Origin: a virus
Length of the DNA: 64,000 bases
Reading direction: 5' to 3' (one strand)
IMG/VR virus record: IMGVR_UViG_3300042397_000787
Shown: piece after piece, positions 2,621 to 56,296 of the stretch
Layout of the letters: the number at the start of each line of letters is the position of its first letter
Position numbering within the stretch: the first letter of the stretch is position 1
The notes under the pieces: generated by a model
The model's input: the letters and a program-made list of their open reading frames with translations, nothing else
Databases searched by the model: none
What the model was told of the DNA's origin: nothing
Program-made: the position numbers and the translations under genes

Positions 2621-3254
2621 AATCTACACCCGTAATATCTTCAACCATTGATTTCCAGAGGTCCTCATGGGGAACGACATAACCGAGAGTGAGGCGCTTG
2701 CTTCGGCTCCCAGCACAGTGATAGAAGACCTTATCAGTCTCACTACGCCTACCGAAGTAACCGACCTTGACAGACCAACCCTTGGGGTCCCAAAGAGTGA
2801 CCATTTCTTTTGTTATTGGATCTAGATACCTAAAGTAGCCGCCATTCTCTTCTGTATTATAAGAAAGAAGAATGTTGTAGCCGCTTGCATTCCAGTTTGT
2901 GTGCCAGCCCATAAATCCATTTTCTGGATAATAAACATGAACCGCATTGTTTTTGGCACCTAGAAACGAAATTAATTCACGATTGAGTTTCTGTTGCTTC
3001 TCGCGGTGAGTGGTCGGGACAGAATCTACCATTCCGATATCACAACAGAAAGCGGTTTCTGGATACCCCTCATGTTCACCATCTTTACCGACTAACTCAT
3101 TCATATACTTTTCAGAAGTGCCAGTGTCGATATCAAATCCTCGACGCCTATCTGGCTCTCTCAATTTGTCGTGGTCTGTTTGTGAGAAGAACCACTCCGC
3201 ATAAGGAGTAAGAATTTCCAGAAGTTCTGGATTAATATTTTTAGAAACCTTCAT
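2607..3254 (-). CDS. Putative 2OG-Fe(II) oxygenase/cupin-fold protein
   Basis: YYPENGFMGWHTN ... FYHCA ... RLTLGY resembles the Hx(D/N)...H...R jelly-roll pattern. ATG at 3254 overlaps the upstream stop. Confidence 0.5.
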   Translation of the reverse strand: MKVSKNINPELLEILTPYAEWFFSQTDHDKLREPDRRRGFDIDTGTSEKYMNELVGKDGEHEGYPETAFCCDIGMVDSVPTTHREKQQKLNRELISFLGAKNNAVHVYYPENGFMGWHTNWNASGYNILLSYNTEENGGYFRYLDPITKEMVTLWDPKGWSVKVGYFGRRSETDKVFYHCAGSRSKRLTLGYVVPHEDLWKSMVEDITGVDFTEL

Positions 3255-38942: not shown

Positions 38943-39013
38943 CTTATTTCCATTTTTTTGTTATACTTGAGAGGGTATTAACCAGTGACTCCCCACACTG
39001 ATTGTCCGAAGAC

Positions 39014-39059
39014 AAAAAATAACCCACTGTGCTTGCTGGTGTCAGGTCGCACAATGGGT
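39014..39059 (-). terminator. Intrinsic terminator-like hairpin downstream of tmRNA and within the hydrolase leader
   Basis: ACCCATTGTGC...GCACAGTGGGT stem followed by TATTTTTT on the - strand. Confidence 0.6.
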
Positions 39060-39119
39060 CATACAACTATTTAGCATCCGTAGATTCTTACATCACTCAT
39101 TTCATCGTATAAACCAAAC

Positions 39120-39494
39120 AGGTGATAGTTTTATTCTGTTTCGAGGGAAAACTATCAAAAACCCAATGAGATTATGCGGCTAGCGCATATCCTGCAAAGG
39201 CAACGTTATCGTTTGCATTTACGTTTAGTGGCACTTTGCCAAGCAATCAGTCTCGAACCGCCCTATTACACGAAAATCGAATTCCAAGGTCACCCCCATC
39301 AACAAGAAACTCATCTAGGCAAGTACCGCAGCAAAAATCATCTTCTATTATACGCGCTCTTAAATCTTCTAGGTTAGTATACTGAGAGTCACGTATGTCA
39401 CGACAACTGCAAATTACCATAATTTCCTCTTGGTGGAGGTGCGGGGAGTCGAACCCCGGTCTTTCCGCCTTTATTGTTGATTGTCAACAACTGA
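39120..39494 (-). ncRNA. ssrA: Circularly permuted (two-piece, alphaproteobacterial-type) tmRNA
   Basis: Acceptor piece first (T-arm CGGGG-TTCGACT-CCCCG, CACCTCC-A-CCA ending at 39431), then a 133-nt intervening segment, then the coding piece starting GGGGGTG at 39297 (G3:U70 Ala identity pair). Tag frame 39216-39172 = ANDNVAFAGYALAA*. Outer ends are approximate. Confidence 0.92.
39247..39420 (-). CDS. Bfd-like [2Fe-2S] small protein nested in the tmRNA gene (57 aa)
   Basis: GAGGA RBS right after the tmRNA CCA; MVICSCRDIRDSQY...DFCCGTCLDEF has CxC...CxxC like bacterioferritin-associated ferredoxins. Confidence 0.65.
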   Translation of the reverse strand: MVICSCRDIRDSQYTNLEDLRARIIEDDFCCGTCLDEFLVDGGDLGIRFSCNRAVRD

Positions 39495-39499
39495 TAATC

Positions 39500-39530
39500 T
39501 ATTTATACACTAGTTTGCTTTGGAAGTCAA
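39500..39530 (-). promoter_or_regulatory. Composite sigma70 (TTGACT-17-TATAAA) and T4 late (TATAAATA) promoter for tmRNA
   Basis: -35 at 39530-39525, -10 at 39507-39502, late motif at 39507-39500. Confidence 0.75.
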
Positions 39531-39546
39531 CAGTTTTTTATATTCT

Positions 39547-40113
39547 TCACGCCGCAGCATCGATTACAAATGACCAGAATGATGTGCCAGGGTAGAACGT
39601 AGCAGGTTTACCGAGTTGTTGCTCTAGTCGTTTTACGTTCTCAACTACGTCTGGCCAACCGGGTGGCCACACGACTTCTGGCCAGCCCTCCACATAGTCA
39701 TGGCCGCACAGTAGACCACCACTTTTTAGATTTCTCAGTCCATATTGAATGATATGCCAGTCATTTGGATTAGTGTGTGCGGCATCGACAAAGAATATAT
39801 CTGCAGGGTTGTTTACATATTCCGAGTATTTAAAATACGGACAGGCAGCGCGGATGCTATGAATATTTGGTATATCCTTAGTGTTCTTGTGGAACTCACC
39901 ATGGAAATCTGTGTCTGTCTGCGGGGCATAAAATGTGTCTACACAATATACATTTACAGAGGGATGGCAGGACTTTGCCCATGTATATGCGCTACGTCCG
40001 TAGAGACTGCCGATCTCCATGATGACTCCATTCTCTGGAACCTCATTCGCCCATTTCTCGATTTGATGAAGTTCTTGCTCGGTCATCCAACCGGGAATTT
40101 CTAAATTAACCAT
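39547..40113 (-). CDS. Class I SAM-dependent methyltransferase (Methyltransf_24-like)
   Basis: IPGWM, MEIGSLYGRS, YCVDTF, FFVDAAH, LKSGGLLCGHDY. Confidence 0.8.
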   Translation of the reverse strand: MVNLEIPGWMTEQELHQIEKWANEVPENGVIMEIGSLYGRSAYTWAKSCHPSVNVYCVDTFYAPQTDTDFHGEFHKNTKDIPNIHSIRAACPYFKYSEYVNNPADIFFVDAAHTNPNDWHIIQYGLRNLKSGGLLCGHDYVEGWPEVVWPPGWPDVVENVKRLEQQLGKPATFYPGTSFWSFVIDAAA

Positions 40114-40122
40114 TATATTATC

Positions 40123-40467
40123 CTATAGATTAAAATTGATACTCTCTCCGCAGCCGCAGCTACTAGAAGCAAGCGGTGCTTGTATTTCAATGACGCTACC
40201 AATAATATCAACTTTTTTATTAACGGTGCTACCTATAAGATATAGTTCCGACGGTCTATCCAGCCAGAACGTCCAATCATCATACTCTTGTGGAAAGTCA
40301 TCTTCTACGAGTTCGTCAGCACTCTTTACCAAATCCCACTTGTAACTGAACCCGGCACATCCACCTCCTGCGAGAGATAGTCGAACACCTAGTGCGTTAT
40401 TTGAAACTGAGACATTACGAAAATGCTCAAGTGCGGATTCCGTAAACTGTATGCGGTCTTTTATCAT
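40123..40467 (-). CDS. iscA: A-type Fe-S cluster carrier (IscA/SufA/ErpA, HesB family)
   Basis: IQFTESA, GVRLSLAGGGCAGFSY, SSCGCGESI. Start taken at ATG 40467, 5 nt after AATAAATA. Confidence 0.88.
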   Translation of the reverse strand: MIKDRIQFTESALEHFRNVSVSNNALGVRLSLAGGGCAGFSYKWDLVKSADELVEDDFPQEYDDWTFWLDRPSELYLIGSTVNKKVDIIGSVIEIQAPLASSSCGCGESINFNL

Positions 40468-40471
40468 CAAA

Positions 40472-41140
40472 CTATTTATTACGACTCGCTTCGAATAAAT
40501 CACGAGTTTCGATAAGTTTTTTGGCCCAGTTGTCGCGCTTTTCTACAAACACCTGAGGCTCATCGCCATCTACAGCAATCAAGATAACAAGAAAGGGAAC
40601 AGGAATACCAGTTCGTTCTTCATACATGATTGCATATGCAGCGGTCTGCATAAAGTAGGAACTGATATATTCCTTCTTCTTGGGCCGATTAGAAGTCTTA
40701 AAGTCGATTACGGCGCGAATACCATTGTATTCTCCGATACAGTCAACGCGACCAGCCATACGCAGGAAGTCGCTGTATAATGCCAGCTCTTGGCAGTGAA
40801 TGTTATCGATAGGTTCAAGAATTGACTTAAACTTAGTAAACATTTCCTTGTCGAGCAAGGACGCTCTCACGCTATCAAAATCGACTTCTTCATTCTTTAA
40901 ATATGCTTCGGTAAGTGTGTGTATTTTAGTACCGCGAGTAGAAGCCTGCTTAGAAATGCGGTCGGCTTCTTCTTCACCAACGCGCTCACGCCACTTGTTG
41001 ATGCCATCTTTATTCAGAACACCGAGAACAGTGGTAGCAGAGGGATATCCAACACCCGAGGCATTGACATAAACTCTGCTACCATCTTCTCTTGTTTCAT
41101 CTTGGGCGAAATCAGTATAATCATAGATCGTTTTAAACAT
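40472..41140 (-). CDS. PD-(D/E)xK exonuclease (Cas4/RecB-like phage exonuclease)
   Basis: YPSATTVL, WRERVGEEEA, RGT.IH, AGRVDCI, IDFKTS, YFMQTAAYA.MYEE. Confidence 0.85.
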   Translation of the reverse strand: MFKTIYDYTDFAQDETREDGSRVYVNASGVGYPSATTVLGVLNKDGINKWRERVGEEEADRISKQASTRGTKIHTLTEAYLKNEEVDFDSVRASLLDKEMFTKFKSILEPIDNIHCQELALYSDFLRMAGRVDCIGEYNGIRAVIDFKTSNRPKKKEYISSYFMQTAAYAIMYEERTGIPVPFLVILIAVDGDEPQVFVEKRDNWAKKLIETRDLFEASRNK

Positions 41141-42897: not shown

Positions 42898-44331
42898 TTA
42901 GGAAAAGACTTTTACCATGTATTTCGCCTCGAAATCATCCGCGTCTTTGAAGTTATTCACCATGGGCATACCCTTGATATTAAGACTAGTATTCAATAGC
43001 ATTGGACAGCCGGTTTCTTCATACCACCTACTAAGAAGTTCATACAGTCCAGAGTGTTGCTCTTTTGTCACAGTTTGGACGCGACTTGTACCATCAGCAT
43101 GGACAATAGCAGGAAACTGATCAGGATATTTACATCTTGAAGTATATTGCATATAAGGGGAGTCTTCCCATGACATCTCAAAGTAGTCTCTCGCATGTTC
43201 TGCCAAAATAACTGGAGCGAATGGCCGAAATTTTTGACGCTTTTTAATGGCATTTACTTTATCCTTAATGTCATGTCCTCTTGGATCAGCTAGAAGGCTG
43301 CGATTACCTAATGCTCTAGGACCAAATTCAGCTTGACCATTTGCAACTCCTACTATACTAGCCTTATGCAATTCTGTCAAGAGTTTTTCTACTGGATATT
43401 CTCCTCCCATATCTGCACCTAGATATGGACCCTTCCAGTTCAATTTTTGTCTGTTGTTAGCTGCAATCGCACCCAAAGAACTACCCGAATCTCCAGGATT
43501 AGGCATAATCCAGACATTATCAAAATACTTTCGTGCAATATGATTTGCACTACAGTTTAACGCACAACCACCCATAAGAACGAGATTATTTTGTCCGGGG
43601 TCTTTCATTTTTGCTCGTATCAGAAGTTTTTCGAATTCTTCTTCATAGACTTTTTGAGTTGCCGCAGCGACACTATAAATGTCCAGGTCTCCATCATCTG
43701 GCCTCCACCAGCGACATCCACGATGCAGGTTCTCAGATTTCCAAAGATTTTTTACTTCATCATAATACTTTCCAGGATCACCATATGCTACCATTCCCAT
43801 TAAGATATATTCGTCTTCATTGGGCTTTAACCCAATTCTATCTGTCATAGCAGAATAGAACAGGCCCAAAGACTTGGGATAGTCCATAGACCATTTCTTT
43901 TTGAGTTTACTACCAGAACATTTCCAGATTGATGCAGTATCGAATTCCCCAATAGCATCAATAACAAGAGCGGTTGCATCATCATATGGCGAAGTGTAAA
44001 AGCCAGCAGCGGCATGTGACTCGTGGTGATAAGCAAACTCTACCGGAATATCTTTTAGACCAAAATGTTCAAGATACTGCCTGACACTAAATCGAATCAG
44101 TCCCTGACCGGCTAACAGTCTTCTCATTGCCCTAAGTTTAGGCTTTTCATACCAGTGAATTTTTTCTGGTTTGCCAAATTTCAAAGCAGCATGAATTAAA
44201 TCATCATTTAAGTCTTTGTCGTTTTTGATACCAGAATATCTTTCTGCATGGGAAGCAAACAAAATTTCATTGCCAGAAACAACAGTCAAAGACGCATCGT
44301 GTGCGGCCGCAGATATACCCCATTCAATCAT
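42898..44331 (-). CDS. Carbamoyltransferase (NodU/CmcH/TobZ family)
   Basis: HDAS, HAERYS..KND, HHESHAAAG, IDAIGE, SLGLFYS, GGCALNC, PGDSG, EFGPRALGNRS, FRPFAP, HADGTSRVQTV, LLNTSLN. Confidence 0.93.
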   Translation of the reverse strand: MIEWGISAAAHDASLTVVSGNEILFASHAERYSGIKNDKDLNDDLIHAALKFGKPEKIHWYEKPKLRAMRRLLAGQGLIRFSVRQYLEHFGLKDIPVEFAYHHESHAAAGFYTSPYDDATALVIDAIGEFDTASIWKCSGSKLKKKWSMDYPKSLGLFYSAMTDRIGLKPNEDEYILMGMVAYGDPGKYYDEVKNLWKSENLHRGCRWWRPDDGDLDIYSVAAATQKVYEEEFEKLLIRAKMKDPGQNNLVLMGGCALNCSANHIARKYFDNVWIMPNPGDSGSSLGAIAANNRQKLNWKGPYLGADMGGEYPVEKLLTELHKASIVGVANGQAEFGPRALGNRSLLADPRGHDIKDKVNAIKKRQKFRPFAPVILAEHARDYFEMSWEDSPYMQYTSRCKYPDQFPAIVHADGTSRVQTVTKEQHSGLYELLSRWYEETGCPMLLNTSLNIKGMPMVNNFKDADDFEAKYMVKVFS

Positions 44332-44339
44332 AAAGAATC

Positions 44340-45215
44340 CTATTTTGGTTTTATCAAATAATCATATATTTCGGTAGCAAACATTTTGTGGGCTTCGATG
44401 CCAGCATGTCCATAAGCACATCTTTCACCCTTATATTTATACATTGAGCCAACAGGTACAAAATTCAATCTATCAAATGTATCTTTATAAATCGTTTTTA
44501 GACGTTTAATTAAATCAATGTCTGTTTTTGTTTTTAAGAATTTTAAATTAGAATGCTGACTAGATGGATCATCAGGATAAGGAATGTAGGGATGCGTTTC
44601 TATAAAAATATGTGGTATATTTTCTTGGTGTAAAGCAGTTTGTATTGACCGTAAAATAATCATATTGTTCAGGGCCACTTGATATTCGTTATTAATTTGT
44701 ATCAGTGCATCATATAAGGTCTCTAGTTTATTTAATGTATGTCTATGAGACATAATAAAGTTGTGTAAATTACCTTCTTCATCTATGATCATATCTCTTA
44801 CAGGAGATGTCGCTCCTATAAATACCACATCTCCATCTTTGTAATAACCATTTGCTATATCCGACAGTATATTAAACAATATCTTTTTTTGAGAAGTGCC
44901 TGGTTCAGCAAAGTTCACATATTCCGTGGATAACATATCACTAAGATGTTTTGCGTATGAATATTGATTGCACAATTTCACATATCGGTCATTAGCTGAT
45001 TCCGAACACCTTGGATCTAACATGGCATAAACTTTACTGTATAGTTGTGCGTTCCAGTTGCTGCGCCCATATCTCATTTTCAAAGTATTGACTTCTTTGA
45101 GCGACATATCGAATATATCCGCATCTGCCAATTCGGACCCAGCAGTATTGGAACAGCCATAAAAAATTGTTCTTTTTATGTTGCATTCTTCAATATTATG
45201 GTATCGGATCGACAC
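44340..45215 (-). CDS. SGNH-hydrolase-like protein
   Basis: FYGCSNTAG (block I-like), NFAEPGTS (block II), C-terminal GHAG..AH. Confidence 0.5.
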   Translation of the reverse strand: MSIRYHNIEECNIKRTIFYGCSNTAGSELADADIFDMSLKEVNTLKMRYGRSNWNAQLYSKVYAMLDPRCSESANDRYVKLCNQYSYAKHLSDMLSTEYVNFAEPGTSQKKILFNILSDIANGYYKDGDVVFIGATSPVRDMIIDEEGNLHNFIMSHRHTLNKLETLYDALIQINNEYQVALNNMIILRSIQTALHQENIPHIFIETHPYIPYPDDPSSQHSNLKFLKTKTDIDLIKRLKTIYKDTFDRLNFVPVGSMYKYKGERCAYGHAGIEAHKMFATEIYDYLIKPK

Positions 45216-46329
45216 TTAGCTCATTCCACAAGTTATAAAATTTTATGTCTTTTTTAAGAAATTTTGTTTCTAATTCTTCAATCCAAGAATCTAATTGTAT
45301 CGTTTCATCTCTAACATTTGTAACTTCATTGTCGTCAACATGAGATAGAAGACTTTCTCTGATATTTACCAATTGAATGATATCAGAAGAAAAGTAGGAT
45401 TCATATTTGTCGATGCATATATCTAACTGATCTATTGCTAATTTTTTTATTTCAGGCGTAGCAGCAAAAATATTAAGTGAACGAGGAGAAGTCAATAGCT
45501 GAAATGTAATACCGTCATAATAGTCGCTGTAGTAAACATAATCACAGAATTCCACTAAACTTAAAGCACTGGGCAAACAATAGGTTGCATGAATAGTAAG
45601 TTTACTATCACTAAAATTTCTAATATATTTTACATTTTCCTCAAATGCATTCCATTTTGCACCATGTCTAATATATTCGAATTTGTCCTTAATAGTTTCA
45701 AAGCTAACTGCCCACTTAACTTTTTTTCCTAGAGTTAATAGCTTTTTAGCAACGTCATTGTTTTTAACATCTACCGCCATATTAGATAGGACATAGTAAA
45801 ACTTGTCAGGTAAAATATCAATTAAATCCAAATTTTGCTTCTGTAGTAGAGGCTCACCCCCTAGAAGTTGCACACTAAAAACGTCATCTGCATTCTGTTT
45901 TATAAACTCAAGCAATTGAGCATCGGTATCTTTCGAGTTCTTTTCAAAATTGTCTTGGAGTATAGATGCCCACTTAGAACTAAATTGTGAGTTACAGTAA
46001 ATACAACTTAGGTTACATGTGTTGTCCCATCTTAGATCCAGGGATGTCAATTGAAAATCTGTTGGTTCAGAGAAGTTTTTAGGATTAGTAATCTTTCGTT
46101 GTGATATACTTCCTCCTTTTTCTGCCAAATCACAATAAGAACAATAACTTTCTGGTTGGCCAAGTAGAATATTTTCACGAATTTTATTAGCCTTTTTCCC
46201 TAGTAACATCTCAGAAGGATTGTCTTTTTTTATGTTACCCAAAGGAAAAGAGCCAGCACAACAGAACTTAATATCTCCGTTGGTGTTGAGAAATAATCCA
46301 GTAAAAGGATATTCACAGAATTTATTCAT
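45196..46329 (-). CDS. Radical SAM enzyme with N-terminal SPASM/twitch-like Cys domain
   Basis: FCEYPF...FCC...CSYC; CNLSCIYC; LGGEP. Confidence 0.9.
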   Translation of the reverse strand: MNKFCEYPFTGLFLNTNGDIKFCCAGSFPLGNIKKDNPSEMLLGKKANKIRENILLGQPESYCSYCDLAEKGGSISQRKITNPKNFSEPTDFQLTSLDLRWDNTCNLSCIYCNSQFSSKWASILQDNFEKNSKDTDAQLLEFIKQNADDVFSVQLLGGEPLLQKQNLDLIDILPDKFYYVLSNMAVDVKNNDVAKKLLTLGKKVKWAVSFETIKDKFEYIRHGAKWNAFEENVKYIRNFSDSKLTIHATYCLPSALSLVEFCDYVYYSDYYDGITFQLLTSPRSLNIFAATPEIKKLAIDQLDICIDKYESYFSSDIIQLVNIRESLLSHVDDNEVTNVRDETIQLDSWIEELETKFLKKDIKFYNLWNELSVDPIP

Positions 46330-47191
46330 TAATCAAATACTTATATAGTTCTTCTGCCATCACTTGGTGTTCAGAAATTTTAGGATGACCGAAACCACAA
46401 TATTTTGGATGAGGCTCTAATGCATTCCAATTTCTACCATATTCATAACTCTTAAAATAATAATCAAGTTTCATGATGGAGGGCAAATCTTTACTTTTTT
46501 CTGCTATACGATACATATTTGATTGATAGAAAGTCGGATCTGAAATCCCTTTGAAAATATTATTGTAGTTAGTGGTGACATGAAAACTTTTTACTCTACC
46601 ATTTGTTCGATGGTAGAGATTATCAATATATTGAATTTGCCAGTAGGCATCCCAGCATATTTGATATGTGTTTCCCACGGTAGCTACATAATCTTTGTGA
46701 AATTTCGGCGAGGGCCAATCCGCATGATATGACAATAACGGCTTCTTCGTTATTCCATTCTCATTTAACCAAAACCATCTATTAGCACTTGTTAATCCAA
46801 ATAGAACTAAGTCTTTATCTCCGATTTTCCCAGTGGCCAGGTCTTCCTCATAGCAGTATATTGAATACTCCATGCCTGCTCCACCAAGCCCTCTGTTTAT
46901 CCAAGGAACGCCAAACTTATCTGCCAGCCAACGCGGCCATGCCACTTCTTTGGTACGGCGTATCTGTTCGCCCCAATCCCATCTGCCGTTCTCATCGAAT
47001 AAAGTTTTATCGGAACAATACTTCGGATTATAATATTTTGTATTCCACTCAGGACAGTATAATCCGCCCAAGTCAATTTTTGTTTTATCAACTTCGTATT
47101 CCGTTAACGCATCAACAAAAACATGATCTAGCGTTTCATCACCGGCAGTCATACTACAACCATAAGCAATGATTCTATCGAATTCAATCAT
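46322..47191 (-). CDS. SGNH-hydrolase-like protein
   Basis: AYGCSMTAG, NRGLGGAG, C-terminal GHP...H; paralogous to 44340-45215. Confidence 0.5.
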   Translation of the reverse strand: MIEFDRIIAYGCSMTAGDETLDHVFVDALTEYEVDKTKIDLGGLYCPEWNTKYYNPKYCSDKTLFDENGRWDWGEQIRRTKEVAWPRWLADKFGVPWINRGLGGAGMEYSIYCYEEDLATGKIGDKDLVLFGLTSANRWFWLNENGITKKPLLSYHADWPSPKFHKDYVATVGNTYQICWDAYWQIQYIDNLYHRTNGRVKSFHVTTNYNNIFKGISDPTFYQSNMYRIAEKSKDLPSIMKLDYYFKSYEYGRNWNALEPHPKYCGFGHPKISEHQVMAEELYKYLINE

Positions 47192-47291
47192 AAATGAACG
47201 GGTCCTGCTTTCGGATCTCAGCCAGTCTCTTTTTATACTTTTGCTTTAGAACATATGAATTATATAATCTTTGAATCCATTTAAACAACAT
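47184..47291 (-). CDS. Small basic peptide (35 aa, ...KKRLAEIRKQDPFIYD)
   Basis: Translated by hand: MLFKWIQRLYNSYVLKQKYKKRLAEIRKQDPFIYD; overlaps both neighbours and fills the gap exactly. Confidence 0.7.
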   Translation of the reverse strand: MLFKWIQRLYNSYVLKQKYKKRLAEIRKQDPFIYD

Positions 47292-48453
47292 AAATTTCGT
47301 CCCTATTATTATTTTTACCACATGCTTCTGAGCAAACATAAAGTTTACCGTCAGAGCAGCTTTTCTTCTTCCATGTATCTTTCAGATTTTGATAGTAAAG
47401 ACCATCGACAATTGTTTGAAAGTTGCTAGTATTTAGATTGATGGAGGAAGTTCTTGTTTGAGAATAATGCCATTTTTTAAATTGATATTCATCAATTCTA
47501 TGATAGCTATTATTAATCGCACTATCAAACCAACAACATGGTAGTAAATCGCCACTAGAATTGACATAAAATGTTTTCTTGTTATTAGAATTGCATTTAG
47601 GTTCGATTTCAGTATGCTCTAGTTCACTGGTATATTCTTTTGGACTTCTGAATATCTTTTTAAAATCTTCATGTTCGTCTTCTATGCTCATAAAGATATC
47701 TCTTACATCAACAGCCGTTTTATCCATTCGCTCTACATCATAGTTTCTAAAAACGATGTTTCTTTCGTTGTCATATTGAAAAGACACTCTATATTTTTCA
47801 GATGGTGCCTGAATTGCATATTCAAACTTACCGGTAGCATCATGAACTGGAATACTACTAACACTCTCAAATCCTAGCGGTCGTTTCGCAATAAATTTTG
47901 CTCCAACACTCTCGGCCAAACTTTTAGCGTAATTAACCTGATGTTCATTGTGGGCAAATACTAAAAATTCCCAGACAATATTCGCACCAGTGGTAGTAGC
48001 GGCAATAAAATTATTAAATGCCGTATCCCATTTGACATTTCTACGATATATATGGTTGGTGTCTTCAAGCCCATCTATACTAAAGACGATATCTCCCTTG
48101 TATAATTCTGGATTGAATAACGCGCCCATTTTTTGCCAGAAATCTTCATTTCTAGTGCCACCGTTTGTGTGAAGTCTTATCGCTGATTTAGGCGACACTT
48201 CTCGAATATAGGAAACAATTTCGTGTAGATCCCTACACAATGAGGGATCACCAGAACTTCCGCATAAAATCCACACTTCAACTTTTTCACATACTTCCGG
48301 CGTGAACCAAGTTTTAAATTTTTCTAGACTAATCTGAGATAATTCAATCGTGCTTTTAGTTTTCCCACCCATCCAGTTACGTGTGCATCCGGGGCATGCC
48401 GCATTACAGTTATTGGTGAGTTCGATGTGTAACTCGTAAATATTAGGAATCAT
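47281..48453 (-). CDS. Radical SAM enzyme with C-terminal SPASM/twitch domain
   Basis: HIELTNNCNAACPGC, FSIDGL, C...GDLLPCC...CSEAC. Confidence 0.9.
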   Translation of the reverse strand: MIPNIYELHIELTNNCNAACPGCTRNWMGGKTKSTIELSQISLEKFKTWFTPEVCEKVEVWILCGSSGDPSLCRDLHEIVSYIREVSPKSAIRLHTNGGTRNEDFWQKMGALFNPELYKGDIVFSIDGLEDTNHIYRRNVKWDTAFNNFIAATTTGANIVWEFLVFAHNEHQVNYAKSLAESVGAKFIAKRPLGFESVSSIPVHDATGKFEYAIQAPSEKYRVSFQYDNERNIVFRNYDVERMDKTAVDVRDIFMSIEDEHEDFKKIFRSPKEYTSELEHTEIEPKCNSNNKKTFYVNSSGDLLPCCWFDSAINNSYHRIDEYQFKKWHYSQTRTSSINLNTSNFQTIVDGLYYQNLKDTWKKKSCSDGKLYVCSEACGKNNNRDEIYVV

Positions 48454-49694
48454 CTATATGCTTCCAATTTTTTTGCCCAGTCTGGAAAGTATTCAGAAAA
48501 CTTTTGATTTTTATACTTATCATGTTTTTCTGAAATAACATAGAAATTGCTGAAATGTCTTTCCGAAGGCCTCTCTGACATTAAATGCGTAGTCACATTT
48601 CTTAGCGTATCAAAATTCCATTCATTAGCCTCTTTATATTCAGAAATATAAGATGTGATTTTTTGGATTAGCTCTAGCTTAATTTCTCTGGGCAAATTGG
48701 TTATCTTATAATGATCTGGCTTGTATAACATGTTATACCATATACCAGAATTCACTCCATATCTATTACGTATGAATCTATCAAACTCTGTGATGTGGTC
48801 AATATTAGCTATGCTTATAGTATAACAAAAACTAATCTTTATTGACGGATGTTTCCGACTTAACTCATGAAACTTGTCAATATTTGCAAGAACCACATCC
48901 CATTTTGCAGGATGTCTCATGTATTCAAATACCTGTTCTATTCCATCGATACTTAGTGCAATATCAGAGGTTTGAAACTGAGTGAAAACATCAATCTGTT
49001 TTTGACTAGGAAAAATTGTGCCATTTGTATTACAATGCAGGTACTGGGACTTACTTACCCCAGCTTCAATACACTTATGTAACATTTTCCATGGCTTAGT
49101 AATTAATAACGGTTCACCGCCATAAAAGTCAATTCTTTTAGATTGTAGAATCCATTGTTCAAATTCTTCCCACAATAATGGATTGTCATCCGAGTAACTT
49201 ATTCTCGCGGGCTCGAAGCGGGCAAGAAATTTTCTTTTATCTGCATATTCTTTTAAATATACATCATATTCTTCTGTTTGCCAAGCACTACTGCTATTTG
49301 AGTTGCACGTTCTACACCTTAAATTGCATGTATTACCAAACTTCATGTCAATATAGAACGGCGTTTCTGGGCCCATAACATCAGGATAATCCTGTTCATA
49401 TTTTTCCCACAAATGTTGCTCTCTCAGGCGCTTACTAATTTTTCCTCCAGCATTTTCTTCTTCCCAACAAGCAATACAATTGGGATGCTGAATGCCAGCA
49501 TCTAATGCTTCCAAAATTTCTCGTCTGTGATTGCTTTTCCAAAACTGACTAGGCTTATGCGTATTGAACCGCATCTCCTTGCCATCATCGTCTAATAATA
49601 CGTCTCTTGCCATGCAGCATGTTTTAGCATTGCCCATAGTCTCGGTTGCAATTCCATATTTGGCAGTCAGACAAGTTAATTTTTTGGTAGACAT
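48450..49694 (-). CDS. Radical SAM enzyme with N-terminal SPASM/twitch-like domain
   Basis: TCC...CIACW; CNLRCRTC; YGGEP; NTNGT; SIDG. Confidence 0.9.
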   Translation of the reverse strand: MSTKKLTCLTAKYGIATETMGNAKTCCMARDVLLDDDGKEMRFNTHKPSQFWKSNHRREILEALDAGIQHPNCIACWEEENAGGKISKRLREQHLWEKYEQDYPDVMGPETPFYIDMKFGNTCNLRCRTCNSNSSSAWQTEEYDVYLKEYADKRKFLARFEPARISYSDDNPLLWEEFEQWILQSKRIDFYGGEPLLITKPWKMLHKCIEAGVSKSQYLHCNTNGTIFPSQKQIDVFTQFQTSDIALSIDGIEQVFEYMRHPAKWDVVLANIDKFHELSRKHPSIKISFCYTISIANIDHITEFDRFIRNRYGVNSGIWYNMLYKPDHYKITNLPREIKLELIQKITSYISEYKEANEWNFDTLRNVTTHLMSERPSERHFSNFYVISEKHDKYKNQKFSEYFPDWAKKLEAYR

Positions 49695-50887
49695 TTTTCA
49701 GCCCAAGGATAGGTTTCAAACACATTCTGTTTTCTGATCTTATCAAGTAACTGTTGTTTCATAACAAAATTATTTTGAATAATAGGATTATGTAGATTAT
49801 CGGTTCTGGATTCCAGGTATTTGATGATAAATTCTACTGCTTGTTTATTTAAAGCATTAGTATTTTTCTGAACCTCAAAATATTCCCGCAATTCGTTCAA
49901 TCTAAGATTATAATTATCTTCGGGCATAACATCAGGCTGCAAAAAATCTGGACTATTAACAGGAATAACGGAACAGTGAATTCCAACCGTATCAAAGAAA
50001 CGAATCAAGTCTGCCATTGTATCCAAAGATAAGTTTTGTAATGTTGTGCTTATGGTAGCATGAATGTTTTGATGTTCTTGCATAATGGTTTTGTAAGTCA
50101 ATAAGTTCTTTTCGATTTTTTTCCACCTACCAGGAAATCTAATATATTCAAACGTTGACTTATAACCATCAATACTAAGGCCGAGATGAACTTCTCTAAA
50201 CTGTTTCCAGTAGTCGATAAATTCATACGGGTTGTTCATTCCGTTGGTATTATAGTGTAGCGCAATGTTTTTTGCCGCACCAGTCTCGCATAAAAATTGT
50301 AGTAGCTTAAGGTTTTCATCAATGATTAGCGGTTCACCGCCTATCAAATAAATTTGTTTGATAGTATGAATATGTTGTGACAATACCTCATTGATATCTA
50401 CGGCATCAATCCACTTTGTATCCGACCAACTAGACTGATAATATTGTTTTGCTTCCGGGTGTTCATCTACTTCCTTACGAATCAGAGAACTACTGAACGG
50501 CCCACACATTCTGCATTTAAGATTGCACTTGGCATCCAAATCAAATTCAACTTTTACAATACCAATAGGCTCTGGACTTTTTTCAGCCACAATCCTATCA
50601 TATTCTTTACGAAAGACTGAATTCGCATAATCTCTAAAACTCTTATTACCAGAGTCTTCGATATTCCAGCATCGTGAGCAAAGTTCTGGCTTATTCCCCT
50701 TTAACATTTCATCTCGCAGATACGACATGGTTTTTGTTTTCAGTAATGTATTCACATCATAGTTTTCTTTGTCTTTGATGTTTTCTTGAACTTGTTTTGA
50801 GCCAATCGCATTGCAACAAGGCCTAAATTCCCCGTGTGAGCCAATGCTCAAATTCATCCAGGGATATACGCAAATAGTATCTGACAT
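49676..50887 (-). CDS. Radical SAM enzyme with N-terminal SPASM/twitch-like domain
   Basis: CVYPW...RPCC...CSRCW; CNLKCRMC; GGEP; SIDG. Confidence 0.9.
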   Translation of the reverse strand: MSDTICVYPWMNLSIGSHGEFRPCCNAIGSKQVQENIKDKENYDVNTLLKTKTMSYLRDEMLKGNKPELCSRCWNIEDSGNKSFRDYANSVFRKEYDRIVAEKSPEPIGIVKVEFDLDAKCNLKCRMCGPFSSSLIRKEVDEHPEAKQYYQSSWSDTKWIDAVDINEVLSQHIHTIKQIYLIGGEPLIIDENLKLLQFLCETGAAKNIALHYNTNGMNNPYEFIDYWKQFREVHLGLSIDGYKSTFEYIRFPGRWKKIEKNLLTYKTIMQEHQNIHATISTTLQNLSLDTMADLIRFFDTVGIHCSVIPVNSPDFLQPDVMPEDNYNLRLNELREYFEVQKNTNALNKQAVEFIIKYLESRTDNLHNPIIQNNFVMKQQLLDKIRKQNVFETYPWAEKCLPKN

Positions 50888-52137
50888 TATTGTACCTCGT
50901 TTACGTGATTTCTATTATTACCCAATTCACCCTGATCCAGTTTATTGAATTCTAAACCACAACAAGAACTGCATTGATGACTGCGCATCGAACTACCACG
51001 CTCGAAACTCATCGGTAGATATCTTTGAAAATATGCAGTATTAATAATTTCTTCTAAAGTATGCTTATGAAGATCCAGTGAGTCCATACCACCATTAAGT
51101 TCGATCATTTTAAGCGAGTTATCATTAGGATTTGACCATTGCGCACCAAATCTCCATGGTTCTCCGCCTAGAAAACAACAAGGGAAAACATGACCTGTGG
51201 CAGACAAGAACACTTCGTTGTTTTTCTGGTGTTCATTAATCTTTGCTCGACACATAATACCCAAAGAGTTGTGTTTAATCTTAATTGTTTCGTTGGAGTC
51301 GGGATCATGATTTACTAAAAACTCTTCTGTGTTTTCAGGCATCAATCTACCAAATTCTTCATTTGTGATATATTGTGGAATAAGATTCTTTATTGCTTTT
51401 GCAAAAACAACATCATTTTGATGCTTTAGTCTCTCTTCTTCCGGTTGCTTGATGTAGTATGAGGAACCATCTGGATTTCTAACTCTGTAGTACCCTCTTC
51501 CGGCTGCATCATATCCTTGCCATCTAGTTGTTCTTTTAATATTGAAAGTTCTAAAATTCAATTCTTTTGCGATGGCCTTGGCTTCGTCAATTTGATGCTC
51601 ATTAAAATCAAACGCGATAAAGTCCCATTTAGCTATGCCGCCTGCGGCAGTAAATGCTTTCATATTAGCATGAATTTTAGCAAAATTGGTATTTCTTCTG
51701 TATAGGTGATTTGTGTCCCATAAGCCATCAACAGAAAAAGTTACACCATCATCTCGTTGATTTTCTCCGTTGAGAATTTGACCTAGTTCTTTCCACCAAC
51801 CTTCCGATCTAGCACTAGCATTTGTGTGCATTACTAATGAGAGATATGGGTTATTTTCTCGCAAATACTTGAATATTGGCAAAGTATCTTTAGCAGTAAT
51901 AGGATCTCCATAATTCCCACATGCATACACCCGTCTAAGTTGTGAAACAAACGGAATAGGAAACCATTCTTTGAATTGTTCTAGAGAAATATCTGTTAGA
52001 TTTAGAAGAGGATTGATTTCTTTACCCTGATTGATATAACGAGGACACATAGGACATCCTGCATTACATTTATTAGATAATTCAATGTGCATCGCAGTAA
52101 TATTGCGCCACGATTTGTATAGTGGTTCAACTTGCAT
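50887..52137 (-). CDS. Radical SAM enzyme with C-terminal SPASM/twitch domain
   Basis: HIELSNKCNAGCPMC, CGNYGDP, FSVDGL, C...VFPCC...CSSCC. Confidence 0.9.
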   Translation of the reverse strand: MQVEPLYKSWRNITAMHIELSNKCNAGCPMCPRYINQGKEINPLLNLTDISLEQFKEWFPIPFVSQLRRVYACGNYGDPITAKDTLPIFKYLRENNPYLSLVMHTNASARSEGWWKELGQILNGENQRDDGVTFSVDGLWDTNHLYRRNTNFAKIHANMKAFTAAGGIAKWDFIAFDFNEHQIDEAKAIAKELNFRTFNIKRTTRWQGYDAAGRGYYRVRNPDGSSYYIKQPEEERLKHQNDVVFAKAIKNLIPQYITNEEFGRLMPENTEEFLVNHDPDSNETIKIKHNSLGIMCRAKINEHQKNNEVFLSATGHVFPCCFLGGEPWRFGAQWSNPNDNSLKMIELNGGMDSLDLHKHTLEEIINTAYFQRYLPMSFERGSSMRSHQCSSCCGLEFNKLDQGELGNNRNHVNEVQ

Positions 52138-53533
52138 TTTCAGTTAATTCCTTGCACATGTGGTAAAAATCCTTGTATTCAGGAAAAGTTTCTATTAGAT
52201 TAAGCCCAGGAGAACGTTTGTCATATTCGGAAAAGAACTTATAGAAGTCCTTGCGACCGGTTTCGATTAATTCAGGAGTAATCCTAGGTCCACCAGTCAC
52301 AAAGTAATTTCTTACTCGCTTTAGCTTTTCCCATTCATGTTCATTGAATCCAAACTCCATTCCGTATGGAGTAATACGCTGCTTGATGAAATCAAGGTCC
52401 TCATCGATATATGATACCCATTCTGGCGGAAGAAGATTAATCATCCAATGTGGTGGTTCTTTTAGATACGGCGTATCAAATCCAATACGCTCTTTACCCC
52501 ACTTATCGCGAAGTTCTAATATCTTTTCTAAGAATGGACGGAAAGAAGCAACACACAGAATGTTGTAGGTACACATAAAACTAATGTTTGCTTTTGGAAC
52601 AATTCTTAGATATGTTTCTACGTTCTGCAAGAAAAGATCCTGATCCAGACCTCTGCGCATATATTCTGCCTTCGGTCCCCACGATTCTAGACTTGTGTAA
52701 AGTTTGAAATCCTTAATTTTCTTATTTTCGATCATCGACTTTACTGTTTCAGCAAACTTTGTCACTCGATTATTCGAAACGCCAAGATTACTATTCAAAT
52801 TCAATTCAAGATGCTGAGTACCATCACCCTCTTCAATCAATTTAAACAACTTCATTGTGTTTGAGTTGATAAGTGCTTCGCCGCCCGTCAGGCGAAGAAC
52901 ACGGAGATCCTTCTTTAGGTCAGGCCACCACTTCCAAAATGCCTCGATGTAGGGATTGTATTCGTCATCTCTATACACCTTACTAGTTTCTAGATATTCA
53001 ATCCCATACTGATTATAACTAATGTCATAATTACCATGCTTGCGGATTTCATCTTCCCATAGTGAAGATGCTTGTGGACAGCAATAACCACACTTAAAAT
53101 TACAACCTGCACCAAAACTAACTTCAAGGAAGTAAGGATTGTAGTCTGCATCCCATGCCGTATTCTTAATCATTTCAGTTTCAGCGGCGGCATCTATCCA
53201 ATGACTTGCATTATGAAACATTCTATCGCTAAAATTTTCGCCAGGAAGATTTTCTACGTTCCAGCAGTAGTAACATTCTTCTGGACGTCCGCCCTCAAGC
53301 ATAATTTTACGCTGTTCTTTCTTCCACTTCGTATTATGAAGTGCAGAAGGATTTTCAGCAATTTCTTCTAAAGGAATATGACGAGGGCGAGGATGATAAC
53401 AACTGTGATTGTCGCCCATATGAAGATACAGAGTCTCGTGGCGCCATTTTTGCAGACAAAATCCATTACCCACTGTATTCAGTGTATCTCGGACTTTTTT
53501 TACCTTATTAATATATTCTAAATTATCACTCAT
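52127..53533 (-). CDS. Radical SAM enzyme (CxxKW/HSCxHP subfamily)
   Basis: FCLQKW...HSCYHP...CYYCW; CNFKCGYC; TGGE. Confidence 0.9.
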   Translation of the reverse strand: MSDNLEYINKVKKVRDTLNTVGNGFCLQKWRHETLYLHMGDNHSCYHPRPRHIPLEEIAENPSALHNTKWKKEQRKIMLEGGRPEECYYCWNVENLPGENFSDRMFHNASHWIDAAAETEMIKNTAWDADYNPYFLEVSFGAGCNFKCGYCCPQASSLWEDEIRKHGNYDISYNQYGIEYLETSKVYRDDEYNPYIEAFWKWWPDLKKDLRVLRLTGGEALINSNTMKLFKLIEEGDGTQHLELNLNSNLGVSNNRVTKFAETVKSMIENKKIKDFKLYTSLESWGPKAEYMRRGLDQDLFLQNVETYLRIVPKANISFMCTYNILCVASFRPFLEKILELRDKWGKERIGFDTPYLKEPPHWMINLLPPEWVSYIDEDLDFIKQRITPYGMEFGFNEHEWEKLKRVRNYFVTGGPRITPELIETGRKDFYKFFSEYDKRSPGLNLIETFPEYKDFYHMCKELTENAS

Positions 53534-54962
53534 TAATCAGGCCTTCGCATTCTTCAATAAATTCTATCATTTCTGGAAATGTTTCTTTGAGGTTAGTCTT
53601 ACGCCGCTTATCATGTTCTCTAAAATGCATAGTGAAGTTTTTCTTATGAAGAATTTCTTCATCTTTAGGCATTGGTTCAACTGCCCAGTCATAAAGGCGC
53701 TTTACTTTGTCAATTTCATAATCTTTGAAACCCTTAAATCGATTTGATACGGTCTCTTTGTTTTGCTCCATAAATTCGATACTATTTAGCAAAGGCTGCA
53801 ACATCTCTTTAGATGCCAACTTTAGACTCAGCCACTTAGGATCAGTAAGCATAGGAGTATCAAACCAAACCAACTGTCTATCCGTATTATACTCTTGACG
53901 CAATCTTAAAATATTTTGAAAGTATGTCATCCAATTCGGTAAACATAGAATGTTACATGTCACAATAAAGGTTAGAGAATGCTTTTCACCTTCACTCAAA
54001 AATTGTGTGATGTTTTTATAAAGAACATCAAAATCCATACCTGTCCGAATATACTCTGCCTGTTTTCCCCAACTATCGAGACTACAGAAGAGCATGAAGT
54101 GATCGATTGCATCCTGATCTGTGATTTCTTTCAAGTCATCCATAAACTTTTGCCACTGTCCTTTTGGAGGGCAACAATTGCTAGTAATACTTAGCGTCAA
54201 ATCTGGTTTTGGATTTTTCTTGACATGGTCAAAAATCTTAAAAGTATTCTTATCCATCAAAGGCTCGCCGCCTGTCATACGAAATGTCTTTAACTTGTCA
54301 TATACAGTAGGAAACCACTCCCAGAATGCAACAAGATATGGATTTACAGGAGAATTATCCGGCACCCAACCCTGTTCTTTCATCCAACCATCGTCATTAT
54401 GAGTTCTATCGAAAAGCCGATATGGACCATGCTCTTTAATTTCTTTATGCCACTCTGTAGACAAATGAGGGGAACAATATGTGCATTTTAAATTGCAGGC
54501 CTGATTAAAGTTGACTTCCAAATATTTGGGGGCAGGATTTCCTTCAAACCCAACTGCTAACGCTTCATCGATAATACCCGGCGAGTTAACATCAAAACTG
54601 CGATACGCTCTATCGCTCATATTACCAGTATCTTCGATATCCCAACAGAAAGAGCATTCCGACGGTCTTTCGCCTAGTAACATCTTCTTTCGCTGTTCTT
54701 TCTTGTATTTTGTGTTATGTAAAGCACCTGGATCTGCCGCAAGTTCCTCTAAAGGAACCTTATGGGTTCTAGGATGATAGCAACTATGAGTTCTGCCAGT
54801 AGGAATATGAATGCTGACATTAAACCACTTTGCAAGACAAAAGGAAGGACTTACTTTGTTTAAGCCTTCCAGCATATCCTTAGTGTTGTCAAAGTAAACA
54901 CTCTTGTATGCTCCATCTAGATCGGCAGTTACTTCATCACCGCGTTGATTTTCATCGTTCAT
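53526..54962 (-). CDS. Radical SAM enzyme (CxxKW/HSCxHP subfamily)
   Basis: FCLAKW...HSCYHP...CSFCW; CNLKCTYC; TGGEP. Confidence 0.9.
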   Translation of the reverse strand: MNDENQRGDEVTADLDGAYKSVYFDNTKDMLEGLNKVSPSFCLAKWFNVSIHIPTGRTHSCYHPRTHKVPLEELAADPGALHNTKYKKEQRKKMLLGERPSECSFCWDIEDTGNMSDRAYRSFDVNSPGIIDEALAVGFEGNPAPKYLEVNFNQACNLKCTYCSPHLSTEWHKEIKEHGPYRLFDRTHNDDGWMKEQGWVPDNSPVNPYLVAFWEWFPTVYDKLKTFRMTGGEPLMDKNTFKIFDHVKKNPKPDLTLSITSNCCPPKGQWQKFMDDLKEITDQDAIDHFMLFCSLDSWGKQAEYIRTGMDFDVLYKNITQFLSEGEKHSLTFIVTCNILCLPNWMTYFQNILRLRQEYNTDRQLVWFDTPMLTDPKWLSLKLASKEMLQPLLNSIEFMEQNKETVSNRFKGFKDYEIDKVKRLYDWAVEPMPKDEEILHKKNFTMHFREHDKRRKTNLKETFPEMIEFIEECEGLINE

Positions 54963-56296
54963 AGGGTATTACACCATTCTAAAAATTCTTTGAATTCTGG
55001 AAATACTTCCACTAGGTTGCTTTTGCTTCGTCTATCGTATTCTGGGAAAAACTTAGCAAAATCTCGTCTGGCATTTAGACGATACGTATCATCAATTGCA
55101 TGTTCATCGTTATAAAAGTAATCTCGAATACGTAACATCTTTTGACGTTCTATATCAGTAAACCATTCAGACTCCTGAATGAATTTCAAGTCAGAATCGA
55201 TATACTTACCGAAATCTTTAGTTAGAATATTGATTGTCCAGTGTGGCGGTTCTTTAAGATGTGGAATATCAACAATAATTCTATCTTTGCCCCATTTTTT
55301 TCTAAGTTCCACAATATAATCTAAGAAGTCTCTGAAATACGGTACTACAAGATTATTATACGTTACCATAAAGGACATGTAAGCAGTTGGGACCAATTCT
55401 AGAACGGTGTCAACATTCTTCTTAAACAACTCGTAGTCCAGACCACGCCGAATGTATTCAGCTTGTTTACCGGTGCATTCAATACTGGTAAAACAACGAA
55501 AATTCTTAATCTTATTGTTATCTATAAGTTCTCGAACAGTATTACTTACTTCAACAACTTTTCGATTGGTTACACCGAGATTGGTATTAATCTGCAACAT
55601 AAGGTCAGAATTACCCTCGTCACGCAACGTCTCTAACAGACGATATGTATTGGTGGTCATCAGAGGTTCACCACCAGTAATACGGAAAATCTTCAACTCT
55701 TTTTTTAGTTCTGGCCACCATTTCCAAAATGCTTCCACATAGGGATTATATTCTTTCTCAGAATATATTTTCTTTCCTCTAGTTCCATATGGACTGTCTG
55801 TTAGATCATAGTCACCAAATTCTTCAAGTTCTTGTTCCCACATAGAAGAAAAAGATGCAGTGCAATATCCACACTTGAAATTACACGCATTACTAAAACT
55901 AATTTCCATGTTGTATGGATTTACGTTCTGATCCCATGGAGTATTGCGTAGAAGTTCGGTTTCTTCATTAAGATCAAAAATAGGATTAATTTTATCAATA
56001 TTCTTCAATACGCGGTCGCTGACCTTACCAATCTTTTCAATATTCCAACAATATGAACAACCAGGCGGTTTACCACCAGAAAGCATATACTTTCTAGTGA
56101 ATTTCTCATAAAGTGTGTTGTGAAGAGCGGCTGGATCTTCCTCAATTTCTTCCAGCGGAATAATTCTAGGACTAGGATGATGGCAGCTATGCTTGTCACC
56201 CGAATGCAGATACAGCGCAAGCCATCTCCACTTCTGTGGACAAAATCCCTCGCCTACAGAATTTAGTGTGGTTAAAGCATCATCTATTTCACTCAT
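54959..56296 (-). CDS. Radical SAM enzyme (CxxKW/HSCxHP subfamily)
   Basis: FCPQKW...HSCHHP...CSYCW; CNFKCGYC; TGGEP. Confidence 0.9.
   Translation of the reverse strand: MSEIDDALTTLNSVGEGFCPQKWRWLALYLHSGDKHSCHHPSPRIIPLEEIEEDPAALHNTLYEKFTRKYMLSGGKPPGCSYCWNIEKIGKVSDRVLKNIDKINPIFDLNEETELLRNTPWDQNVNPYNMEISFSNACNFKCGYCTASFSSMWEQELEEFGDYDLTDSPYGTRGKKIYSEKEYNPYVEAFWKWWPELKKELKIFRITGGEPLMTTNTYRLLETLRDEGNSDLMLQINTNLGVTNRKVVEVSNTVRELIDNNKIKNFRCFTSIECTGKQAEYIRRGLDYELFKKNVDTVLELVPTAYMSFMVTYNNLVVPYFRDFLDYIVELRKKWGKDRIIVDIPHLKEPPHWTINILTKDFGKYIDSDLKFIQESEWFTDIERQKMLRIRDYFYNDEHAIDDTYRLNARRDFAKFFPEYDRRSKSNLVEVFPEFKEFLEWCNTL

Follow-up and report, generated by a model that had tools for sequence, protein, structure and literature searches.

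A predicted Bfd-like mini-protein gene nested in the excised spacer of a permuted phage tmRNA gene

Permuted tmRNA genes, in which the acceptor piece is followed by a spacer and then by the coding piece, are known from Alphaproteobacteria, such as Caulobacter (ssrA), and from aquatic myophages, such as Melnitz and the pelagimyophages (PMC9004378; Rfam RF04321, RF01849), and the viral tmRNA gene described here has the same order. It also has in common with known permuted tmRNAs the G3.U acceptor stem, the encoded CCA and a tag of the ANDN...ALAA type, and with those of phages a T4-like context, with genes for a transcription coactivator and gp59 downstream. The intervening sequences of tmRNA genes are known to carry cargo: in permuted genes this can be a tRNA-Ala gene or a repetitive element, and group I introns of tmRNA genes can contain homing-endonuclease genes (PMC11915505). 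No protein gene in a permuted spacer is reported in that 2025 tmRNA database paper, and in the searchable literature the unusual spacer contents noted are the tRNA gene and the repetitive element only, with protein genes restricted to group I introns (PMC11915505). Our locus shares with these cases the tolerance of extra genetic material in a segment that the mature tmRNA no longer contains. However, the ORFs of tmRNA introns are mobility genes in self-splicing introns, whereas the gene in our locus encodes a predicted metal-binding mini-protein and lacks its own stop codon. Unlike in known permuted tmRNAs, its frame crosses the RNase P site and ends in the mature RNA, so that a spacer of the kind usually treated as disposable would be the messenger for a conserved protein under selection.

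The nearest analogue is offered by the ORFs in excised 23S rRNA intervening sequences, which encode the S23p family in Leptospira and Coxiella; there, too, a protein gene lies in a piece cut from a stable-RNA precursor. That case differs in the RNA, in the nuclease (RNase III) and in the protein, and its ORFs are complete within the excised sequence.

The permuted tmRNA gene and its nested reading frame

The window, a stretch of 64,000 nucleotides, is part of a 117-kb IMG/VR virus record, and the genes near its tmRNA locus (gp59, transcription coactivator, SleB-type hydrolase, PhoH) form the context of a T4-like lake phage. The stretch is present in lake-water metagenomes of at least 14 studies. 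The Rfam model tmRNA_permuted (RF04321) matches the minus strand from 39492 to 39172 with 95.8 bits (cut-off 47), and ARAGORN also called a permuted tmRNA, with the tag ANDNVAFAGYALAA, whose frame ends in a hydrophobic ...ALAA followed by a stop. The acceptor piece (T-arm, 3' strand, CCA) comes before the coding piece, and the 7-bp acceptor stem is formed by GGGGGTG with CACCTCC, including the G3.U pair. The features of the locus are as follows.

39500-39530, minus strand: promoter-like TTGACT, 17 nt, TATAAA(TA), immediately before the acceptor piece (by eye; putative function)
39431-39492, minus strand: tmRNA acceptor piece with T-arm, 3' acceptor strand CACCTCC and ACCA, ending CACCTCCACCA at 39431 (Rfam RF04321 alignment, ARAGORN)
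39298-39430, minus strand: tmRNA intervening segment (spacer), 133 nt, absent from the mature two-piece tmRNA (unaligned insert in the Rfam alignment)
39425-39429, minus strand: Shine-Dalgarno GAGGA, 4 nt upstream of the ATG (read in the sequence)
39298-39420, minus strand: conserved 41-codon core of the mini-protein gene, with C4, C6, C31 and C34 (purifying selection, family alignment, AlphaFold2 model)
39247-39297, minus strand: 16-codon tail and TGA, within the 5' portion of the coding piece of the mature tmRNA (read in the sequence)
39081-39297, minus strand: tmRNA coding piece, starting GGGGGTG with G1 at 39297; 3' end approximate (ARAGORN gene limits, Rfam)
39172-39216, minus strand: tag reading frame, ANDNVAFAGYALAA and TAA (ARAGORN, Rfam alignment)
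39013-39059, minus strand: terminator-like hairpin with an 11-bp stem, a 16-nt loop and then a T run, 3' of the tmRNA (by eye; putative)

The promoter-like motif, which is kept in relatives, is the sole evident promoter for the tmRNA and the ORF. It was not flagged by a simple consensus scan because its second hexamer has no T at position 6, and the hairpin was not flagged because its loop exceeds 8 nt. In RNA libraries, a 151-nt contig from one metatranscriptome matches 39291-39441 exactly, and in contigs from two other libraries the acceptor and coding pieces are linked by another spacer, of 74 nt. These contigs lend weak support, and to transcription only; DNA carry-over is possible, and the contigs show no RNA ends or expression levels.

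The spacer begins AGAGGAAATT, followed by the ATG at 39420 of an ORF of 57 codons. The spacer is taken up by codons 1-41, G1 (39297) is the first base of codon 42, and the TGA at 39249-39247 lies inside the coding piece, all exactly as placed in the original prediction, from the tmRNA CCA at 39431 and the GAGGA to the 41 codons in 133 nt. As the stop codon is inside the mature tmRNA, one transcript must be both messenger and stable-RNA precursor. The same nested ORF occurs in 12 viral loci and two metagenome contigs. Seven distinct close 123-nt sequences differ at 21 sites, 15 of them in the third codon position (binomial P = 4e-4), and for most pairs of close variants pN/pS lies around 0.1-0.2. 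Across 14 nested sequences of nine types, all 35 third positions of codons 2-36 vary, with C4, C6, C31 and C34 fixed. The spacer interior folds no better than shuffled sequence (z = -0.33), and conservation therefore acts at the protein level. By its pattern of substitution, the nested ORF is a real, selected protein gene, and the proposal that the spacer harbors a protein gene has proved genuine.

An alternative is that the spacer is structural or neutral and that the ORF in it, arisen by chance or decaying, yields no functional protein. This would fit a spacer that is hypervariable and dispensable, a tail that is not conserved and a protein that is unnamed in any database. However, the strong synonymous excess, the four invariant Cys and the missing RNA-structure signal in the spacer interior speak against it, as do the 38 distant family members and the confident fold obtained with the family alignment that are described below, and we regard it as very improbable.

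Bfd likeness of the mini-protein and Fe-S genes nearby

A phmmer search with the 41-residue core against 1.84 billion proteins returned these 38 relatives, at 41-75% identity, with the family pattern M-x-V-C-x-C-R-x-I ... D-D-x-x-C-G-x-C. In the family alignment, C4, C6, R7, I9, D28 and C31 do not vary, and conservation of G32 and C34 is 90% or more. C30, which makes a CC pair at the second motif of the window protein, is not conserved in the family, and the C-terminal tails of family members are unrelated to one another.

The mini-protein had originally been likened to Bfd, the bacterioferritin-associated ferredoxin (PF04324; PDB 4E6K, 6E6R); both proteins have an N-terminal M-x-V-C-x-C motif and, further on, C-G-x-C. 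The C-x-C ... C-x-x-C arrangement is indeed present (C4, C6, C31, C34), and the Cys pairs are 24 residues apart compared to 32 in Bfd (a 9-residue deletion), outside the usual PF04324 range of about 30-35, which bears out the earlier remark that the spacing is shorter than in E. coli Bfd. The window protein has no match to PF04324 at E <= 10, and scans of Pfam and PHROGs with the 57-residue protein gave no meaningful match. Among 41 relatives, PF04324 is the family most often matched (6/41), with all matches below threshold and a best E of 0.048. While phmmer against PDB sequences found nothing, the family profile aligns both Cys motifs to P. aeruginosa Bfd (E 6.3), and hhalign with aligned Bfd proteins of the E. 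coli type as target (P 3.5e-4, 37% probability, 9-residue gap) places all four Cys on Bfd C4, C6, C39 and C42.

Structure prediction points in a similar direction. AlphaFold2 gave a mean pLDDT of 86.9 with the family alignment and a poor model (pLDDT 60) from the single sequence. The sole Foldseek match in the PDB is a Bfd chain, 4e6k_H, and it is weak (E 2.7, TM 0.46/0.55); the top structural match in the ESM Atlas is a cluster with PF04324 in 96% of its members (TM 0.55, 38 of 41 residues aligned). An ESM Atlas search by features gave no usable match, and with VIA-align none of 48,161 chains exceeded Z 2.5. Each of these lines, from sequence comparison or from models, is weak, and they all point the same way; the likeness is consistent and suggests that the mini-protein could be a minimal, deleted Bfd-like domain. 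Of the original assignment, the four-Cys pattern is borne out; Bfd is the top structural match, with weak scores, and the window protein does not reach PF04324. We lean slightly toward Fe-S binding by the mini-protein; it is possible that it binds Zn instead. Unlike Bfd, the mini-protein is acidic (10 acidic versus 4 basic residues in the core), its family is virus-only and tmRNA-linked, and no bacterioferritin partner is known here.

The genes upstream of the tmRNA on the same strand include some related to Fe-S clusters:

39547-40113, minus strand: methyltransferase-like gene, 188 aa, between the IscA-like gene and the tmRNA (PHROG 2675, E 1e-7)
40123-40503, minus strand: IscA/HesB-type Fe-S carrier gene, upstream of the tmRNA (Pfam PF01521, 38.8 bits, cut-off 26.3)
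42898-44331 and 45196-56296, minus strand: run of large ORFs that includes Radical_SAM matches (Pfam), and also a carbamoyltransferase

Seven of the nine large ORFs scanned match Radical_SAM (five of them at or above the Pfam cut-off), and the Fe-S enzyme load of this phage is therefore unusually heavy. In L082, the IscA-type gene directly precedes the tmRNA, and another family member, in L161, also follows an IscA-like gene. The methyltransferase-like gene is found in no related locus and so looks like an insertion specific to the window phage. The IscA-like gene and the Radical_SAM ORFs, as annotated, fit a putative Fe-S role of the mini-protein.

Spacer architecture and proposed translation on the tmRNA precursor

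The nested sequence types are those of the window with L082, the L002 group, L172, L100, L105/L108, L168, L170, L171 and L167. In all nine, the spacer is 132-135 nt long and holds exactly 41 codons, codon 42 is at G1, and there is no stop before G1, so that what had been noted for the window extends to every nested type. Four acceptor stems (GGGGGTG, GGGGCTG, GGGGGCG, GGGGATG) occur in the eight types that can be paired. The exception is L167 (150-520, on a short contig), whose two acceptor strands, CAGGTCC (3') and GGGGGCG (5'), do not pair. The tmRNA here could be recombinant, or the locus an assembly chimera. After codon 41, single-base indels in the tmRNA place the tail in three frames (57 aa in the window, 58 aa in the L002 group, 66 aa in L082), and the tail is therefore not selected as protein.

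By contrast with codons 2-36, only one of the five third positions varies in codons 37-41 of the same 14 sequences. The stretch AGTTTCTT is invariant in 14/14, and the octamer AGUUUCUU, invariant at synonymous sites across the nested sequences, is predicted to pair with the Shine-Dalgarno region (A/G-AGGAAAUU), at the 5' end of the spacer. The predicted closing helix of the window consists of two arms:

39421-39428, minus strand: closing helix 5' arm (AGGAAAUU), which includes the Shine-Dalgarno (RNAfold minimum-free-energy and centroid structures)
39304-39311, minus strand: closing helix 3' arm (AGUUUCUU), made up of codons 37-39 plus the first base of codon 40, with the leader GUUGAU between it and G1 (RNAfold; invariance)

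A closing helix of 8-11 bp is predicted by RNAfold in the window, L100, L105 and L168, and an equivalent one in the ORF-free spacers of relatives. In every spacer type, the predicted helix begins 1-3 nt past the CCA and stops 4-5 nt short of G1, with a UGAU leader between helix and G1. Thus, the ribosome-binding site is predicted to double as one strand of the spacer's processing helix, and the low variation in codons 37-41 indicates that they are under RNA-level constraint. There is one two-sided change in the helix (L105 has U1-A instead of A1-U), and L170 and L171 have C-G where other types have U.G; beyond these changes the two arms hardly vary, which leaves little covariation. The Shine-Dalgarno motif (A/G)AGGAAA is found at the same place in most nested types, with AAAGAAA in L105/L108. 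L007 has AGAGTAAA there, and in the haplotype L007/L009 the Shine-Dalgarno is weakened to AGAGTA.

Comparison with close relatives shows how variable the spacer is. Four loci, L018, L046, L054 and L064, have flanks about 95-97% identical to the window, acceptor pieces 98-100% identical (100% in L018, L046 and L054) and coding pieces 98-99% identical, and their spacers are free of the ORF:

L018:2938-3009 (72 nt), L046:2943-3009 (67 nt), L054:2925-3009 (85 nt) and L064:2916-3003 (88 nt): ORF-free spacers

The spacers of these four loci and the window are five mutually unrelated sequences, and in the alignments similarity is lost precisely at the CCA and regained 4-6 nt ahead of G1 (at TGAT, then G1). 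ORF-free spacers in relatives are 28-122 nt long, and Rfam identified no riboswitch, tRNA or other known RNA within any spacer. On these alignments, the spacer behaves as a hypervariable, exchangeable cassette, and the distribution of the mini-gene indicates that it is exchanged between phages and tmRNA types. Since near-identical phages have other, ORF-free spacers, the mini-gene is optional cargo. The expectation that the ORF would be conserved in related phage tmRNA loci was borne out in the nine nested types, with their fixed Cys, but not in these near-identical phages.

The ORF-free spacers of L041 (2922-3009), L056 and L058 contain a T-arm-like GGTTCGAATCC in a stem-closed unit of about 76 nt. 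This unit could be tRNA-like cargo, but with no Rfam tRNA call in the spacers, the motif is unconfirmed.

Overall, the explanation that we favor, and hold to be moderately probable, is that the excised spacer carries as optional cargo a gene for a Bfd-like, metal-binding (probably [2Fe-2S]) mini-protein of about 40 residues with four Cys, which would be made from the pre-tmRNA, its translation competing with tmRNA maturation. Because the ORF has no evident promoter of its own, it would come from the pre-tmRNA transcript. The Shine-Dalgarno would emerge 2 nt after the CCA, and ribosomes would load only while the closing helix is open; as its pairing partner is made about 115 nt later, ribosomes could load during transcription, which is when loading would most likely take place. 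They would then read the 41 conserved codons and continue past G1 across the 5' acceptor strand; termination, 51 nt into the tmRNA, would come after an arbitrary 16-residue tail has been added. With a ribosome at the acceptor strand, the acceptor stem could not form. In RNA that has folded, the Shine-Dalgarno would be paired, and RNase P (at G1) and 3' trimming (at the CCA) would release the two tmRNA pieces. Since the ribosome path crosses the 5' acceptor strand, translation would compete with tmRNA folding and processing on one molecule, and because the RNase P site lies within the reading frame, translation would be physically coupled to the maturation of the stable RNA. The folded or excised spacer would present a paired Shine-Dalgarno and no stop codon. 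Points against this reading are the one haplotype with a weakened Shine-Dalgarno, the slight covariation in the closing helix, the sub-threshold Pfam matches, the weak structural matches, the possibility of Zn binding and the dispensability of the gene.

A different fate for the excised spacer had been proposed in the original prediction, namely that it is translated as a stop-less mRNA whose product is tagged by tmRNA and degraded, in a switch linking ribosome rescue to Fe-S or iron status. The 41-residue product would then accumulate only from the unprocessed precursor or with trans-translation saturated. This logic resembles that of ArfA of E. coli, a ribosome-rescue factor whose mRNA is cut by RNase III and which is regulated by trans-translation, as has been proven experimentally (PMC10107115). 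As with ArfA, RNA processing would here remove the stop codon from an mRNA and so make its product a substrate of tmRNA; for such a non-stop design, ArfA is a precedent. The fixed phase and the lack of a stop before G1 in nine nested types, though a TGA is one frame away in the UGAU leader, are consistent with the proposed switch, and so is another arrangement of the family, in which the ORF is upstream of the tmRNA and its tail runs into the acceptor piece before the stop (L141, L142, P0012, P0014, P0021 and P0033; the tails of the last four read as translated T-arm and ...TCCACCA). Unlike in the ArfA case, however, the Shine-Dalgarno of the excised piece is paired in the predicted closing helix, which should limit initiation. 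In addition, many family members stop normally upstream of the tmRNA, near-identical phages manage without the gene, and nothing ties the mini-protein to iron sensing. We find the switch doubtful, and we are as skeptical of a nested design that is an ArfA-like sensor or a true tmRNA partner. If the sensor reading were true, the 41-residue product would survive only when trans-translation is saturated or tmRNA processing lags, and the supply of an Fe-S or iron-mobilizing factor for the phage radical-SAM enzymes would be tied to the state of ribosome rescue. In a wider sense, phage tmRNA and mini-protein would be parts of a single functional module.

The mini-protein family and phage tmRNA genes

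In viral contigs searched with the core alone, a family member was found in 68 loci outside the clade of the window. At 51 of the 68, a permuted tmRNA on the same strand abuts, overlaps or encloses the family ORF, usually with the ORF just upstream, and these tmRNA-linked loci span alpha- and beta-type tmRNAs. Five more loci adjoin tRNA genes, and the remaining 12, two of which are truncated, have neither a tmRNA nor a tRNA gene within 1.5 kb. By comparison, any tmRNA at all is present in only 2.3% of phage genomes (PMC9004378). Besides the nested arrangement of the window and the second arrangement described above, with the ORF running into the acceptor piece, there is a third, in which the upstream ORF has its own stop 3-200 nt before the tmRNA and its tail often contains the tmRNA promoter (L096, L102). 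The order exonuclease, ORF, tmRNA, SleB hydrolase is conserved among the family loci.

The reverse association does not hold. No family member was found within 3 kb of 68 closely related tmRNA loci (hmmsearch with positive controls), anywhere in five larger records, of 36-71 kb, or in Ruegeria phage RpAliso, which has a tmRNA; the link between the family and tmRNA runs one way. No family member was found in 185,579 prokaryote species genomes either, and tblastn with three of them against 50,697 cultured-phage records gave no match, while a word-based homologue search returned two close clusters only. As delimited by these searches, this is an unnamed, virus-only family of minimal, predicted Bfd-like proteins that travel with phage tmRNA genes. 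In a 36-column protein tree, the nested copies cluster (4 changes versus a mean of 11.7 after shuffling), with upstream copies interspersed among them. A single origin of the nested copies may be compatible with this tree, which is poorly resolved, so that moves between upstream and nested positions could not be counted from it.

The tie to tmRNA genes is also what one would expect if the mini-protein were a dedicated accessory of the phage tmRNA, acting in its processing, interacting with SmpB, the ribosome or AlaRS, or blocking the host system, rather than an Fe-S supply factor. The 51 tmRNA-linked loci and the five beside tRNA genes, against the rarity of tmRNA in phage genomes, argue for such a role, as does the lack of family members in the prokaryote genomes searched. 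On the other hand, the one-way link leaves the 68 related loci and RpAliso with a tmRNA and no such protein, the acidic core is unlike an RNA binder, and the conserved gene order could be inherited synteny in one phage group. We consider an accessory role a minor but appreciable possibility, and continue to favor optional Fe-S-type cargo translated from the pre-tmRNA.

Several smaller observations were made at these loci. The permuted tmRNA of the cultured phage RpAliso (L166:1441-1784; OR257569.1, about 2864-3207), with the tag ANENFAPVEMAVAA, is unannotated in the GenBank record. In two upstream-type loci (L096:1501-1668 and L133:1501-1689), the non-conserved tail holds a TTGACA-17-TATAA(A/T) promoter for the next gene, which is the tmRNA in L096 and a gene of unassigned kind in L133. 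A search for CCA-ended mini-tRNAs beside family members without a tmRNA found none. In L155, near-identical T-arm elements ending GGGCCAACCA (L155:1742-1775 and L155:2475-2508) flank a family member without a detectable tmRNA, and they may be parts of an unrecognized tRNA-like or tmRNA-like gene.
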